The notes below the pieces were generated by a model, which was given only the letters and a program-made list of their open reading frames with translations, was not told the DNA's origin and ran no database searches. Made by a program: the position numbers and the translations under genes. Positions 15,398 to 20,000 of a stretch of DNA of 20,000 bases are shown here, one piece after another. The stretch is taken from assembly GCA_002010215.1 (NCBI GenBank), contig MTMY01000033.1, forward strand, positions 52,271 through 72,270. Reading direction: 5' to 3'. Position 1 is the stretch's first letter. Each line of letters opens with the position of its first letter. The DNA comes from Archaeoglobus sp. JdFR-37 (GTDB lineage Archaea > Halobacteriota > Archaeoglobi > Archaeoglobales > Archaeoglobaceae).

Positions 15398-17260
15398 TCA
15401 AAATACATCCAGCCTATCTACTTTTTTGAAAACTCCAAGGATTCTGAAAAACGTTGTAACTAATGTGAGTTCCGAGATGTCCTCTTCACTGAGCGCCGCT
15501 TCAACCTCTGCAAAGAAGACATAATCTCCAAGTCCTGTTCCTGAAGGTCTGCTCTCCAGCTTTCTAAGGTTAATACCTTTCCTGTAAAAGACCTCGAGCA
15601 CATCTTTGAGTGATCCTGGCCTGTCCTCCACACCGAAGAAAAGGCAGGTAGTATCCCCACTTCTCTCTCCACCCGCCCGCCTTACAATGTAGAATCTCGT
15701 GATATTGCCCGAGACATCCTGAATGCTTTTTCTAAGCACGTACAACTTATGAAGCCTTGCGGCATTCTCAGAGACTATTGCCGCGGACATATCATCCAGC
15801 ATTGATATTGCATCAGACGTGCTAGTGGTGTAACGGATTTCAGTATGTGGCAGGTAGTTGTTTATAAAACTCATACACTGGGCCACTGCCTGAGGGTGAG
15901 AGAATACGGTCTTTATTTCCCTGAGTGGTATTTTTCTTTTGGCTGCAAGGCAATGGGTGATTTCCAGTTCCATTTCTCCAAAAACCTCAACTTTACTCTT
16001 CATCAGTGCATCCAGCGCCGGAATAACGGTGCCATTCACTGAATTCTCAATGGGTATTATTCCGTAATCCGCCACACCTTTTTCGATTTTTCTTAGAATC
16101 TCTTCAGGAGTTGTGCAGTAAATTAGTGGGGTTCTGCTGCCAGTAAGTTTCATGGCAGCTTCATCACTGAAACTGCCCTGAGGGCCCAGAACCGCCACTT
16201 TTCTCCGAACACCCAGAAGTTTGTACTCTTCCTCTTTTGTTAGCCTCATTATGTCCTCAAAAATCTGGCTAACGAGAAGAGGGTTCAGGGAAGTGTTGGA
16301 GAGCAGTTCTCTGAGTTTAACCTCCTCAACCTCTGCTACCTCTATAGGCTCATCTTTTTCGGCTTTTATTTTTGCAATCCTCTTTCCAGCACTAATTCTC
16401 TTTTCCAGCAGTTTGAGTATCAGGCTATCCACCACCCTCACATAGCCCCTAAGCTGATGTAGAGTTTCTGCGTTCTGGGTGACTTTTGACGCCTCGAGAA
16501 TGATCTCACTCCCTTCGTGATCTCTGAAAATTCCGGAAAGCTCACTGAAAGTCTGTCTGAATTTTTCATCATCATCCATCAAACTCTCAAAGTCCATGAT
16601 GCTTTTCAGAAACTCTCTTCTGGTCTTTGATGCGTTCCTCTGGATATCAAAGTACAGCTTCCAGTCCTGATGAAGCACTCTTGATGCCAGTTTCAGCATT
16701 ACTGAAGCGACTGGCGTCGTGAACCCGATTTCATCTTTTCTCTTAGCCAGAAAGTTTGAGAGAGCCATTAGAATGAAGTGAGTAAGTCCCTGAATTCCTG
16801 CAACAACCTCATCATGTTTTTCTGGAGTAGTCTCGCTCAAAATAGCTCCGGCCCTTTCGAACTCTTCTAGAATCTTCTTTTCTTCACCTCTCCCTGATTT
16901 CTTTACAATGGCTATATATGACATCCCTAGCTCACTATCCGGCCCGAACATAGGATGAATGCTGAGGAAATCAAAGCCAGAAGACTCGAGAAGAGGTATG
17001 ACGTCTTTCTTGATGGAAGATACATCTACCAGTAGCGCTTTTTGCGTTCTTTCTTTGAGAAATTCAAGAACTTCTGGAATCTTATCCATAGGAGTGCACA
17101 GGAATATCACGTCAAATTCAGGGATTTCTTGTGGATCAATCTCATTTTTCTCTGGTTGTATGTCGTATCCCCTTACATAGTATCCTCTTTCCTTGAAAAA
17201 CTTGTGGAAGAGAGTCCCCATCCCTCCCATTCCAAAAATCAGCACTTTCATAGTCTTCAT
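15398..17260 (-). CDS. pheA: Trifunctional prephenate dehydrogenase / chorismate mutase / prephenate dehydratase with ACT domain
   Basis: GMGGMG, DVSSIK, HPMFGP, HD..QGLTH (dehydrogenase); LRGYVRVVDSLILKLLEKR (AroQ mutase); LGPQGSFS, PIENS, SHPQA, NITRF, ESRP (dehydratase-ACT). Start at 17260 chosen from GGTGA spacing. Confidence 0.95.
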   Translation of the reverse strand: MKTMKVLIFGMGGMGTLFHKFFKERGYYVRGYDIQPEKNEIDPQEIPEFDVIFLCTPMDKIPEVLEFLKERTQKALLVDVSSIKKDVIPLLESSGFDFLSIHPMFGPDSELGMSYIAIVKKSGRGEEKKILEEFERAGAILSETTPEKHDEVVAGIQGLTHFILMALSNFLAKRKDEIGFTTPVASVMLKLASRVLHQDWKLYFDIQRNASKTRREFLKSIMDFESLMDDDEKFRQTFSELSGIFRDHEGSEIILEASKVTQNAETLHQLRGYVRVVDSLILKLLEKRISAGKRIAKIKAEKDEPIEVAEVEEVKLRELLSNTSLNPLLVSQIFEDIMRLTKEEEYKLLGVRRKVAVLGPQGSFSDEAAMKLTGSRTPLIYCTTPEEILRKIEKGVADYGIIPIENSVNGTVIPALDALMKSKVEVFGEMELEITHCLAAKRKIPLREIKTVFSHPQAVAQCMSFINNYLPHTEIRYTTSTSDAISMLDDMSAAIVSENAARLHKLYVLRKSIQDVSGNITRFYIVRRAGGERSGDTTCLFFGVEDRPGSLKDVLEVFYRKGINLRKLESRPSGTGLGDYVFFAEVEAALSEEDISELTLVTTFFRILGVFKKVDRLDVF

Positions 17261-17267
17261 TACTTCA

Positions 17268-17882
17268 TCACCTGACACCCAAGAGCCGAAGTATTTTATC
17301 AGCCGTTTTCACATGAATCTGACCTGAAACAACAGCACTGCCTGTGTGGCAGTATATGAACGGAGCGCCCATGAGAACTGCCAGAATTCTGGTGTAGCTG
17401 AATTCCCTACCCATTAAAAAGGCTACAACGCTTTCATATTCTGATAGAATCCTGCAAATTGTTACCACATCTTTTTTGCTCCTTCCCATCACCGCGATTT
17501 TAAATATATCGCCTTGTGAAGAATCAATCAGATCAGCTAGGAAATTGTAAGAAGGTGTTTCACTGAAATTGTGGTAAGATTCGATAATTGTGCATGGTAG
17601 ATCGAAAAAAGCATCATAGCTTCCAGTTTCGACATCAGCGTACTGACAAGCTTCTGCATACCTCCCGTAAATCTCCAGTCTTTCTTCATCATTTCCAATA
17701 AACTGCCCACCATCCTCAACCTTTCTTATAGTCAGTATTTTCGCCTTTGTTAGCTCTTTAACGAATTCCACTGATGGAAAAGTATCGAAAAGATCTAAGC
17801 GAAGTTCAATAACGTCCACAGAGGGTAAGGATGATGCCTGCTCTGCTTCACTCAATGAACTCACAGATGCCACGATTTTCAT
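17268..17882 (-). CDS. aroD: Type I 3-dehydroquinate dehydratase
   Basis: IELRLD, LTIR...DGG, SYHNF, FKIA, MG...TR; operon context. Confidence 0.9.
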   Translation of the reverse strand: MKIVASVSSLSEAEQASSLPSVDVIELRLDLFDTFPSVEFVKELTKAKILTIRKVEDGGQFIGNDEERLEIYGRYAEACQYADVETGSYDAFFDLPCTIIESYHNFSETPSYNFLADLIDSSQGDIFKIAVMGRSKKDVVTICRILSEYESVVAFLMGREFSYTRILAVLMGAPFIYCHTGSAVVSGQIHVKTADKILRLLGVR

Positions 17883-17897
17883 GATATCACTTAAGCG

Positions 17898-18884
17898 TCA
17901 TTTCTCGATTATGAACTCTTCAACTTCCATGCCGAAATGACGAGATTTTGTGCCAAGCCAGACAAGCACTTCATCTCCCACTTTCAGCTCCGAAACAGAG
18001 ACATGTCTGCCATCGGGGGTAACTAGTTTAATGGTTTCAGCATTCTGCAGAATCACTGTCCCCTCTTCTCCATCGACTTCTGCTTTGATAAGCAACAATG
18101 GACGCCGCTCAATCTTGACCCTGCCCACGTAACTCTGTCTCGCTTTCCCATCCCATCTCACTATCTCCACTTCATCTCCGCCCTTCAGCTCCATTAGGTA
18201 TTTCGTCTTACCTCCTACCTTGACGTAAGCGTTCACACTTCCAGCATTGACTCTGAAGGGACGGGAAGCTACGTACTCACTCTCTTCACTCTCGCTTGCT
18301 ACCAGAAACATAAAACCTGCTTTGTTGCCTACTAGCATCCCTTCGCCGGGCTCCATTATTGACACAGTATCTATGCAGACCCTCTCACCGACACCGAGGG
18401 GTCGAATCTCTTTTAATTTCGCTTTCCTGAGTTCAACTCCAGCCTCACCACCACTAGCAAGCTTAAAATATTGAAGGAGTTCTTCTCTGCTTCCGCTTAC
18501 AGCTATCCCATCTGCACCCTTCTCCAGTGTTGTGAGGGCAACTTCTGCATCCTCGTGACCATTTACAATGGCTATAAGCTTTGCATTTCCCTTCATAGCA
18601 ATCAAGTTCTCGAGAGGAATTATCTTCCAGTCCTCAAAGGATACAAATAGCCTTTCAGTCTTCTTTGAGATCTCTGCCGCCCTCATTTGATCATCAGCAG
18701 ACTTTATTTTCAAAAATGGGGCCTCATTAAAACTAATAACTTCTATTCTCCCAAGCTTTTTTGTTCTTTCAACAAATTCATCAGCAACAATGCATCCTGT
18801 AAATCCAATCTCAACAGCATCTTTAATTGCTTTCTTTGCTTTCTCCCAGTCACTTTCTCTGCATATTAGCCATATCTCCTTCAT
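17898..18884 (-). CDS. aroB': 3-dehydroquinate synthase II (archaeal)
   Basis: WKIIPLENLIA, LEKGADG, RVCIDT, RPFRVNAG, KIERRPL, LQNAETI, RHFG. Confidence 0.95.
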   Translation of the reverse strand: MKEIWLICRESDWEKAKKAIKDAVEIGFTGCIVADEFVERTKKLGRIEVISFNEAPFLKIKSADDQMRAAEISKKTERLFVSFEDWKIIPLENLIAMKGNAKLIAIVNGHEDAEVALTTLEKGADGIAVSGSREELLQYFKLASGGEAGVELRKAKLKEIRPLGVGERVCIDTVSIMEPGEGMLVGNKAGFMFLVASESEESEYVASRPFRVNAGSVNAYVKVGGKTKYLMELKGGDEVEIVRWDGKARQSYVGRVKIERRPLLLIKAEVDGEEGTVILQNAETIKLVTPDGRHVSVSELKVGDEVLVWLGTKSRHFGMEVEEFIIEK

Positions 18885-19653
18885 TCAGCACCACCATTGC
18901 TTCCTCGACATCCACATCCTCATGCACGATCATTCTTATAGCTCTGGCAATCAGTTGGGGCTTTGGATGTTCAAACACGTTTCTGCCCACTGCCACGCCT
19001 GCAGCACCGGCAAGTACTGCATCTCTTATCATCAGAAGGAGCTCTTCCTCGCCTTTTTTGCTCCCGCCTGCCATCACAACTGGGATTCCAACACTCTCCA
19101 CAACCTTCGCAAAGCTCTTCAGAGAACCCGTGTAGGTCACCTTAACAATATCTGCTCCGAGCTCGTAACCAACTCTTGCCGCATGGATTACATTATCTAC
19201 ACTTTTCTCTTCCAAGTCAACTCCTCTGGCATACACCATTGCCAGCAGTGGAATGCCGAAGTCATCGCACACTTCAGCTACGAAACCAGCTTCCTTGAGC
19301 TGCTCGTGTTCAGTATCAGAGCCGATATTAACATGGATGCTGACCGCATCTGCACCAAGCTGAATTGCTTTCTCAACACTTCCAACAATCGTCTTTCTGT
19401 TGGGGTCTGGTGATATTGACGTTGAAGCGCTCAGATGTATTATCAACCCCATATCACTCCTCTGAATATGACAGGAATGTTTTGCTACACCTTTATGTAA
19501 AACTACAGCATCAGCGATTCCTTCAATCTGGGATAGAACCCTGTCAATGTTGGACAATGTTTCAGATGGTTTCGTTATACCATGGTCCATTGGTACTATG
19601 AATGTTTTTCCACTTTTCAATATTCTTCTCATCCTTCTACCCTTTCCAATCAT
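18850..19653 (-). CDS. aroA': 2-amino-3,7-dideoxy-D-threo-hept-6-ulosonate synthase (DhnA-type class I aldolase)
   Basis: PMDHG, HLSAST, LGADAVSIHVN, ELGADIVK, VAVGRN; directly upstream of aroB'. Confidence 0.92.
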   Translation of the reverse strand: MIGKGRRMRRILKSGKTFIVPMDHGITKPSETLSNIDRVLSQIEGIADAVVLHKGVAKHSCHIQRSDMGLIIHLSASTSISPDPNRKTIVGSVEKAIQLGADAVSIHVNIGSDTEHEQLKEAGFVAEVCDDFGIPLLAMVYARGVDLEEKSVDNVIHAARVGYELGADIVKVTYTGSLKSFAKVVESVGIPVVMAGGSKKGEEELLLMIRDAVLAGAAGVAVGRNVFEHPKPQLIARAIRMIVHEDVDVEEAMVVLNEGDMANMQRK

Positions 19654-19751
19654 TTATTACCACCTTTTATTTAATTTTTCAATAAATTTGAGGTTAAAAA
19701 TTTTGAAACGGTTACAGCCCACACAAACCACGCCAACACCTCCAGAAGATA

Positions 19752-19820
19752 TCAATAGCTAAAGCTAAACCAATAATAGAAATAGAATCCGTAGCTCCAA
19801 ATGGAGACGAACTGAGACAT
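19752..19820 (-). CDS. Putative aromatic-amino-acid leader peptide, 22 aa
   Basis: ATG TCT CAG TTC GTC TCC ATT TGG AGC TAC GGA TTC TAT TTC TAT TAT TGG TTT AGC TTT AGC TAT TGA = MSQFVSIWSYGFYFYYWFSFSY (5 F, 5 Y, 2 W). Its stop is 98 nt upstream of aroA'. Confidence 0.7.
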   Translation of the reverse strand: MSQFVSIWSYGFYFYYWFSFSY

Positions 19821-19843
19821 CTTGCCCAACTTTAGCAAGGTGT

Positions 19844-19857
19844 TATTTAAATTTTTC
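19844..19857 (-). promoter_or_regulatory. BRE/TATA promoter for the leader ORF and aromatic operon
   Basis: GAAAAATTTAAATA, with the same AAAAATTTAAATA core as the tRNA promoter; TATA ends 24 nt before the leader ATG. Confidence 0.7.
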
Positions 19858-19899
19858 CATAATTCGTGGAAGTTTCTACTGGCAGTTCACAGATAACAT

Positions 19900-20000
19900 G
19901 TGAACTACTCCACCCCAGGCAGAGCTTCCTGCTTCAGCGAGAGAACTTGCCCCTCGATCACTTCTCTACACGAGATCACGAGGGGTAGAGGTTCTCCCTC
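19900..20000 (-). mobile_element. IS200/IS605 (IS1341-type) right end with probable tnpB 3' tail and omegaRNA scaffold; continues beyond the window
   Basis: GAAG-CTCTGCC-TGG-GGTGGAG-TAGTTCAC end. Frame 20000-19905 reads EGEPLPLVISCREVIEGQVLSLKQEALPGVE*, resembling TnpB tails. Nested stems GAGAAC/GTTCTC and CCCCTCG/CGAGGGG. Confidence 0.75.

Follow-up and report, generated by a model that had tools for sequence, protein, structure and literature searches.

A conserved Phe-, Tyr- and Trp-rich reading frame ahead of the aromatic amino acid operon of Archaeoglobi, a candidate leader peptide sensor

The aromatic amino acid operon and its leader frame

We analysed a 20,000-nucleotide (nt) stretch of Archaeoglobus sp. 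JdFR-37 DNA (hereafter, the window) that carries, on its reverse strand, an operon for aromatic amino acid biosynthesis preceded by a short upstream open reading frame (uORF1) rich in Phe (F), Tyr (Y) and Trp (W) codons. The first enzyme gene of the operon, aroA', is followed by aroB', aroD and a tyrA/chorismate mutase/pheA fusion (Table 1). This gene content covers the first three steps common to Phe, Tyr and Trp synthesis plus the Phe/Tyr branch, and is thus consistent with a leader that combines codons for F, Y and W. The initial annotation had described a B recognition element (BRE) and TATA box followed by an ATG opening a frame with 12 aromatic codons out of 22, including the run FYFYYWF, on the same strand as this operon and just upstream of it, and all these elements were recovered. 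The uORF1 stop and the aroA' ATG (19653), a start codon fixed by the conserved N-terminus MxGKxRR, are separated by 98 nt. The uORF1 start is predicted, from its distance to the TATA box, to coincide with the transcript 5' end (leaderless mRNA). The window ends at position 20000 with the contig itself, 142 nt past the promoter, so that the upstream neighbour of the operon cannot be seen in this assembly.

Table 1. Features of the aromatic amino acid operon and of its leader region in the window (SD, Shine-Dalgarno motif).
Feature	Positions	Strand	Description
BRE/TATA of the operon promoter	19844..19858	-	ggaaaaatttaaata; TATA end 23 nt before the uORF1 ATG
uORF1, leader ORF	19752..19820	-	MSQFVSIWSYGFYFYYWFSFSY plus stop TGA (19754-19752); ATG at 19820
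Aromatic zone, last 13 codons of uORF1	19755..19793	-	YGFYFYYWFSFSY; 10 of 13 codons aromatic; ends in the conserved TTT AGC TWY stop motif
SD1	19737..19743	-	GGAGGTG, 8 nt past the uORF1 stop
Candidate uORF2	19657..19731	-	GTG start 5 nt past SD1; 24 codons; TAA end 4 nt before the aroA' ATG
Sole T-run of 5 in the spacer	19696..19700	-	aaaatttttaacc
A/T-rich block resembling a second BRE/TATA	19663..19680	-	gaaaaattaaataaaagg; ends 14 nt before the aroA' ATG
SD2 of aroA'	19660..19666	-	AAGGTGG
aroA', 2-amino-3,7-dideoxy-D-threo-hept-6-ulosonate (ADH) synthase	18850..19653	-	267 aa; TIGR01949, 358 bits (cut-off 299); first enzyme gene
aroB', 3-dehydroquinate synthase II	17898-18884	-	
aroD, type I dehydroquinase	17268-17882	-	
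tyrA/chorismate mutase/pheA fusion	15398-17278	-	626-aa prephenate dehydrogenase/chorismate mutase/prephenate dehydratase

Conservation and codon choice of the leader

The aroA' protein was searched in 41 relatives and then in 96 genomes of the class, and the DNA upstream of each orthologue was read. Orthologues were recognised by the N-terminus MxGKxRR, a second aldolase-family (Fba-type) homologue having GKxIRxER instead. An equivalent leader ORF preceded the aroA' orthologue in 75 of the 76 assessable genomes, which belong to ~16 genera of two families. It was present at 22 of the 24 loci of the first search, the exceptions being a locus truncated by a contig end after 104 nt (L023) and one classed as without leader, where a 23-codon ORF occupies the same place with just 4 aromatic residues in its final 12 codons (L022). 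All 53 loci from further genomes had it (51 detected by an automatic rule; L117 and L124 by inspection). No two of the 75 leaders are identical, and the aroA' proteins of these genomes share 52–64% identity (92% in a genome of the same genus, G001). The same leaders occur in named Archaeoglobaceae records, namely metagenome-assembled genomes (MAGs) of Ferroglobus sp. (L034), Archaeoglobus sp. (L035, L040) and Archaeoglobaceae (L036). The proposal that orthologues of aroA' would be preceded by conserved short F/Y/W-rich ORFs was therefore borne out, with both synonymous variation and F/Y/W interchange among them.

The architecture of the leaders is equally well preserved. They comprise 18 to 38 codons (median 24) and stop at TAA (58 cases) or TGA (17). 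In 73 of the 75, a TATA-like box ends 21–26 nt before the leader ATG, which implies a leaderless mRNA, as the initial annotation had suggested for the window; the remaining two (L009, L014) have a second in-frame ATG at the right distance from the TATA box. As a control, we scored other loci by the highest aromatic count in the final 12 codons of any stop-terminated upstream frame. Among 76 other aroA'/Fba homologues (methanogens, Bathyarchaeia, bacteria), 73 scored 1–5, one scored 6 (L069) and two scored 8 (L039, L100); L039 corresponds to AT-rich Methanobrevibacter DNA, with the frame at -253 and no promoter. Thirty loci from other families of the phylum scored 2–6. Within the same families, no leader scoring at least 6 was found before the second, Fba-type homologue (maximum 3; L026, L042, L052, L053 and L084).

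Since TTT and TAT codons are favoured in T-rich DNA and the spacers contain 37–43% T, uORF1 might be a chance ORF in T-rich spacer DNA, a caveat already attached to the initial annotation. We scanned the genome (1.97 Mb, GC 44.8%, 94.5% complete) in six frames for all ATG-started ORFs of 15–60 codons. The aromatic fraction of uORF1 ranked first among the resulting 14,823 and was the only one of at least 0.5, while the long ORFs of the genome contain 9.2% aromatic residues and 1.06% Trp. A TATA-like box at leaderless distance precedes just 7 of the 780 ATGs of the window, and among the 28 short ORFs of the genome that combine such a box with a downstream gene only uORF1 is strongly enriched for pathway end products. 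Moreover, start and stop positions are fixed, Trp (TGG) is eightfold enriched in the aromatic zone, the leader is kept in 75 of 76 genomes, and scores of at least 7 appear in only 2 of the 76 non-orthologue loci and in none of the 30 loci from other families, one of those two (L100) itself being scored as an analogous leader (see below). The comparative data thus already refute a chance origin, to which we give practically no credence, and the caveat can be set aside.

The genome scan also returned an Ile-rich leaderless-type uORF, MKIKIIIIKH (C2:97219-97251; L032/L167), 49–82 nt before the gene of a branched-chain amino acid ABC transporter ATPase resembling LivG. Its conservation is limited to a genome of the same genus (MKIKIIMIKH...), and its meaning is doubtful because a second TATA box lies 24 nt before the livG-like ATG. 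A W-rich ORF on contig C23 was rejected as another leader, being embedded in other coding sequence and lacking a promoter. A scan of the genome for single-residue enrichment gave mostly G-rich artefacts derived from SD motifs: the short 'ORFs' of the type M..R(D/E)GGGG before several genes are read-outs of GGAGGTG-type SDs, and none was a real candidate.

The aromatic residues concentrate at the end of the leaders. The final 12 codons of the 75 leaders (900 codons) include 341 Phe, 129 Tyr and 79 Trp codons, namely 549 aromatic codons or 61% (38%, 14% and 9%, respectively), together with 157 Ser, 61 Gly and 40 Arg codons, while the N-terminal parts have an ordinary composition. Trp represents 8.8% of zone codons versus 1.06% in genes. 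The enrichment of all three residues fits the idea, put forward in the initial annotation, of one peptide for all three end products. From position -14 to -1 relative to the stop, the aromatic frequency ranges between 0.36 and 0.89, with its lowest value (0.21) at -2, which is Ser in 64% of the leaders, and peaks at -5 (87%), -3 (89%; F in 80%) and -1 (77%; F or Y in 76%).

Substitutions point in the same direction. We compared 181 leader pairs, not independent of each other, that differ at 1–10 of the 36 zone positions: 239 of the 334 single-nucleotide codon differences involving an aromatic codon retain an aromatic codon, when the random expectation estimated from the codon table is about a quarter for TTY/TAY and never for TGG. 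In 62 pairs of the same length, divergence was 0.12 per site in the aromatic zone versus 0.43 in the N-terminal part. As judged from these sequence comparisons, aromatic identity that is kept while the N-terminal half drifts is the signature of a regulatory leader peptide. It sits poorly with a functional aromatic-rich micropeptide (e.g., associated with the membrane or an enzyme) that would be co-expressed with the operon with no role as sensor. Such a micropeptide would also be conserved and co-transcribed with the operon, and the alternation of F with S or G could perhaps form a beta-strand; however, it would have to tolerate an essentially unconserved N-terminal half (the 0.43 differences per site hold for close pairs), lengths from 18 to 38 codons, a composition that is kept when the sequence is not, and a codon choice constrained beyond the amino acid. 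We consider it very improbable.

This constraint on codon choice is strong. TTT accounts for 76% of the Phe codons in the zone, versus 41% in the N-terminal part and 46% in the genes of the source genome; TAT for 84% of the Tyr codons, versus 60% and 47%; and AGC for 90% of the Ser codons (141 of 157), versus 17% (13 of 75) and 26%. The only tRNA-Phe found by Aragorn has a GAA anticodon, so that TTT is read by wobble, and a bias towards slowly read codons would sharpen a sensor. The non-aromatic codons of the zone are almost all NGN (AGC, GGN, AGR, TGC), which generates a TTT-NGN hexamer periodicity across the 75 leaders; read in one of the two alternative frames, TTTAGC contains the stop TAG.

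The AGC bias raises the possibility of a nucleotide-level element in which the TTTAGC repeats are the operator of a DNA-binding regulator or the site of an RNA-binding protein, the frame being incidental or secondary. In fact, conservation at the nucleotide level is highest for the TTT-NGN periodicity and for TTTAGCT, the terminal motif, and UAG triplets at 3-nt spacing recall the sites of TRAP and HutP. In two genera, TTTAGC can also pair with the transcript 5' end, including the AUG, over up to 16 bp (AUGCCAGCUAAACC with GGUUUAGCUGGUAU; AUAGCCAAAGC with GCUUUGGCUAU), and an ungapped-helix test on the 75 leaders gave p<=0.05 in 24 and p<=0.01 in 16. Nevertheless, this helix is restricted to certain lineages and borderline in the window (p 0.047), the genome (94.5% complete) contains no TRAP homologue (PF02081), and the Rfam 15 covariance models gave no match at E<=1 in 19500-20000. 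Such an element also leaves unexplained the ATG at leaderless distance from the TATA box in 73 of 75 leaders, the stop directly past the zone in leaders of 18–38 codons, the interchange of F, Y and W at single positions, the eightfold Trp enrichment, and the variation between TTT and TTC and between TAT and TAC. We therefore regard it as improbable.

Transcripts, spacers and related leaders

Transcript evidence came from a relative (G041, a single 2,178,400-bp contig), whose leader MHGVAKTRVFGFYFRFSFGYWFSF lies at positions 301-227 of the extracted locus (L133). This stretch is present in six RNA runs of two studies, of which we examined four, from three samples. In each of them, one long RNA contig (7,814, 7,798, 4,695 and 7,763 nt) spans aroA', the spacer and the uORF. 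These contigs end at positions 302, 293, 293 and 289, that is, 0–12 nt from the uORF ATG at 301. None of the four runs covers the promoter gap (303-404, 102 nt), an argument against DNA carry-over, and the next contig starts at 405–423. In this one relative the uORF is co-transcribed with aroA', with the 5' end at the ATG. Since contigs are not reads, their ends amount to a weak hint at a transcript end, although they are what a leaderless first cistron should give. RNA depth is one figure per contig, without local resolution and hence without bearing on premature termination. A transcription start near the uORF ATG, as originally proposed, thus agrees with the ends seen in four runs of two studies, and a start exclusively downstream of the uORF is not the rule.

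Past the stop, the leaders adopt two layouts. Twenty-four have a short spacer (22–61 nt) with a strong aroA' SD (GGGGGTG) 12–49 nt past the stop. The other 51, including that of the window, have a long spacer (65–105 nt), in 43 of which an SD-like motif, SD1 (GGAGGTG/GGGGGTG), occurs 0–18 nt past the stop. By a single rule (start codon 3–10 nt after SD1; end of the ORF between -8 and +12 of the aroA' ATG), a bridging second ORF, uORF2, follows in 35 of the 43 leaders with SD1 versus 18 of 84 control frames (the two shifted frames). Depending on the clade, uORF2 crosses the same conserved A-rich/SD2 block in one frame or another and terminates at +4 or +11, so that what is kept appears to be translation across the spacer, not a peptide.

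The A/T-rich block before SD2 is kept at the nucleotide level across genera (TAWAAATATAAGAGGTGTTTTATATG) and is present in most long-spacer leaders; its conservation exceeds the needs of an SD alone. In the window, this block (19663-19680) is too close to the aroA' ATG to serve as a promoter for that start. The single T5 run of the window's spacer is not conserved, L002, from the same genus, having atcttt at that place.

Similar leaders occur beyond the order. The high-scoring control L100 (region 930-1200), which comes from an 'uncultured archaeon' record and whose aroA'-aroB' pair has the other N-terminal type, carries MKLANAYCNFFSSDFLRASSGFFGYWFFYFK 230 nt upstream, with a TATA box ~22 nt before its ATG. 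Its 200-nt spacer is unusual, an A-rich array in which SD-like GGAGG/GGGGG repeats recur five or six times. With the aroA' of L100 as query we retrieved 80 metagenome loci. Two of them, L214 and L215 (aroA' 95% and 77% identical to that of L100), have leaders ending in ...GSYFGYWFFYFK and ...AAAAYFGYYFYR, respectively; L277 and L280 (both at 490-703, with a TATA box 23 nt upstream) have MSDSLSLVALQQSASGNSYFGYFYFY and MDNLSNSSLFSAVRASYYFGYFYFFW; and L224 (220-390) has MANQLMSRPVCLSFSFGSFYYFGC. The leaders outside the order are of the leaderless type and end in ...YFGY(W/F)(F/Y)F.. The remaining metagenome loci (69 with counts of 1–5, five with 6–7) showed no such ATG-started ORF, or a weak one (L254).

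A hairpin begins at the stop codon both in L277 (TAGACTCC..GGGGTCTA; folding z-score -1.65) and in L280 (TAGACTCTGG..CCGGGTCTA; -3.56), and is followed by T6–T8 tracts. A distal RCCAAAG is a predicted pairing partner of the zone sequence CUUUGGY; in L280 this distal segment could pair with the SD instead. These few lineages suggest that the theme is wider than the order and that its read-out varies. W/F-rich frames (RWFFWTF) ~290 nt before aroA' homologues of another family were dropped as leaders, having no ATG. Eight loci (L184, L185, L190, L198, L199, L201, L209 and L210) share a conserved stretch, ~270–390 nt before aroA' homologues, that reads ..NKEYKNKHGN.D.RW(F/V/L)F(W/R)(T/A)F.. in one frame and has no ATG; it is limited to a single family of the phylum and could represent the end of a gene or a conserved element without coding function.

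Proposed ribosome-based sensing and its possible read-outs

Taken with the comparative sequence evidence, these observations make it probable that the leaderless mRNA of the aro operon has uORF1 as its first cistron, and that uORF1 is a genuine, conserved leader on which the ribosome would sense charged tRNA-Phe, tRNA-Tyr and tRNA-Trp and alter operon expression (multivalent attenuation). A ribosome translating uORF1 would report the supply of the three charged tRNAs: if any of them ran short, it would stall within the last ~13 codons, and the stall would change the expression of aroA'-aroB'-aroD-tyrA/pheA. Translation, stalling and regulatory effect are all things we infer. By analogy with bacterial leaders and with mycobacterial polycysteine ORFs, the change would be an increase, i.e., induction on starvation.

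Several observations weigh against this interpretation. The 75 leaders come from related genomes, so that their counts are not independent, and the RNA evidence consists of assembled contigs of a relative and not of reads of this organism. The AGC bias in the zone is a nucleotide-level constraint unexplained by codon sensing alone. No conserved structure emerged: RNAalifold gave a consensus of 0 pairs for the 42 long spacers as well as for the 25 whole leaders analysed, and folding z-scores averaged -0.78, with 14 of 75 below -2 and the window's leader at ~0. In simulations that masked the RNA under a ribosome at 37, 60 and 65 °C (the energy parameters being those for 37–65 °C, not for the growth temperature), accessibility of the aroA' SD was unchanged (0.42 free, 0.43 with a stalled ribosome, 0.43 with the ribosome at the stop), and that of the first SD past the stop stayed at 0.36 in all three states, with no consistent effect over 71 leaders. 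The first SD of the window became more accessible: a stall at codon -3 raised its unpaired probability from 0.28 to 0.50. Runs of at least five T occur in just 15 of the 75 spacers. Finally, the alternative pairing predicted for L277 and L280, read naively, would conceal the SD while the zone is occupied by a ribosome, so that control may also run in the opposite direction.

The last point, among others, could favour an arrest peptide comparable to TnaC or AAP, which would sense free aromatic amino acids in the ribosome tunnel and, by stalling in times of plenty, repress the operon. The conserved C-terminal F-S-(F/Y)-stop, with aromatic conservation highest at -1, -3 and -5, would suit such a peptide, and with SD1 0–18 nt past the stop a ribosome held there would cover it. 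However, known arrest peptides have fixed residues at fixed distances, while the leaders are low-complexity and variable in sequence and their zone varies in length; the bias to the wobble-read codons TTT and TAT also fits tRNA sensing better. We give the arrest peptide little weight.

How a ribosome sensing charged tRNAs on uORF1 might be read out can be framed more tentatively. The classical terminator/antiterminator scheme was discarded: the analysis detected neither a bacterial-type terminator nor conserved alternative hairpins, and predicted no consistent SD switch. As anticipated in the initial annotation, a GC-rich terminator hairpin is missing, with 0 terminator-like sites of the bacterial type (GC-rich hairpin plus U-tract) in 19400-20000. 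A plausible, though still tentative, read-out is occupancy of the ribosome-binding site past the stop, namely SD1/uORF2 in long-spacer leaders such as that of the window and the aroA' SD in short-spacer leaders: a steady flow of terminating ribosomes would hinder this site, and a ribosome held upstream would free it. More doubtfully, the stalled ribosome might keep a factor for termination or cleavage away from the U-rich 3' end of uORF1 or from RNA close to the stop, following the analogy with tnaC drawn in the initial annotation, with aCPSF1/FttA in the place of Rho. Lineage-specific RNA refolding is unlikely, as is some other read-out that we have not listed, and protection of the 5' end from 5'-to-3' decay would seem less likely still. 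We can also imagine, as a broader and rather unlikely conjecture, a structure-independent attenuation of archaea's own, present in several lineages with the aroA'/aroB' route, in which the U-rich aromatic leaderless ORF would double as an aCPSF1/FttA signal or entry site, or as a gate for the next ribosome-binding site, and would be masked by a ribosome stalled on hungry Phe/Tyr/Trp codons.

Comparable devices are known from bacteria. The leaders of pheL/pheA and trpL and the multivalent thr and ilv leaders are short peptides with end-product codons clustered near their end. The archaeal leader resembles them in being an ORF on the operon transcript with clustered end-product codons of several kinds, and the bias of its zone to wobble-read or rare codons recalls the leu leader; it differs in being leaderless instead of SD-led and in having neither terminator/antiterminator hairpins nor a hairpin-plus-U terminator, archaeal RNA polymerase terminating by other rules than the bacterial enzyme. 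In tnaC-tnaA, a stalled ribosome masks the Rho entry site. As in tnaC, the conserved residues abut the stop, a possible target lies directly past it and alternative hairpins are unneeded; however, the signal in tnaC is free Trp, sensed by way of a specific nascent peptide, and the operon that it induces is catabolic. To our knowledge archaea have no Rho, and aCPSF1/FttA would have to substitute for it.

A further parallel is offered by the leaderless polycysteine short ORFs of mycobacteria (Ms5788A, the 'Cys ribulon'), in which ribosome pausing was shown to be the sensor (Canestrari et al., bioRxiv 10.1101/834739). There, as in Archaeoglobi, the first cistron of the biosynthetic operon is a short leaderless ORF with a run of end-product codons near its 3' end, and an SD-led gene comes next (10.1101/834739). 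The mycobacterial mechanism relies on a duplex that the Cys codons form with the SD region downstream, whereas the predicted pairing of the first SD with the zone averages 0.07 in our leaders and reaches 0.41 in that of the window. The archaeal system also differs in its host, with a TATA/BRE promoter, in combining three amino acids, and in its common second, bridging short ORF.

In Archaea, the known control of aromatic biosynthesis genes is represented by the TrpY repressor and the Tar activator (TK0271), DNA-binding proteins that act at promoters, and the same article describes such regulation as little known and its mechanisms as lineage-dependent (PMC6737238). The pathway and the response to aromatic amino acids are the same as here, where the conserved element is a leader ORF within the transcript. 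One introductory sentence, citing reviews, in an article presenting a tool states that uORFs regulate in archaea too (PMC10219788), and ribosome profiling (Ribo-seq) of Haloferax reported uORFs, none of this kind in the part of the paper at hand (PMC7261190). We found no archaeal amino acid leader peptide in the full-text literature, a search that left paywalled papers and supplements outside its scope, so that an earlier mention is possible. As far as this search shows, uORF1 is probably a ribosome-read sensor, of a kind so far undescribed in archaea.

The trp genes of the same genome are organised differently. The trpC-D-E-G-F operon (C11:23252-27393, reverse strand) has a TATA box 24 nt before the trpC ATG, which points to a leaderless mRNA, and no uORF was found before it. 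With a leaderless promoter of its own and no uORF, the control of the Trp branch would differ from that of the common pathway.

In bacteria, attenuation by leader peptides is textbook knowledge, and TrpY and Tar were the only archaeal aromatic controls that surfaced in our survey. An order-wide leader with transcript support would demonstrate that archaea employ their ribosomes to sense metabolites. The leader also poses a mechanistic puzzle because the bacterial hairpin logic is absent; if the attenuation conjectured above were true, one element of 20–30 codons would integrate all three end products without a terminator hairpin. The family has cultured members, for one of which RNA-seq exists, and the leader would provide a natural system for probing how archaea couple transcription to translation, initiate on leaderless mRNAs and exert polarity.

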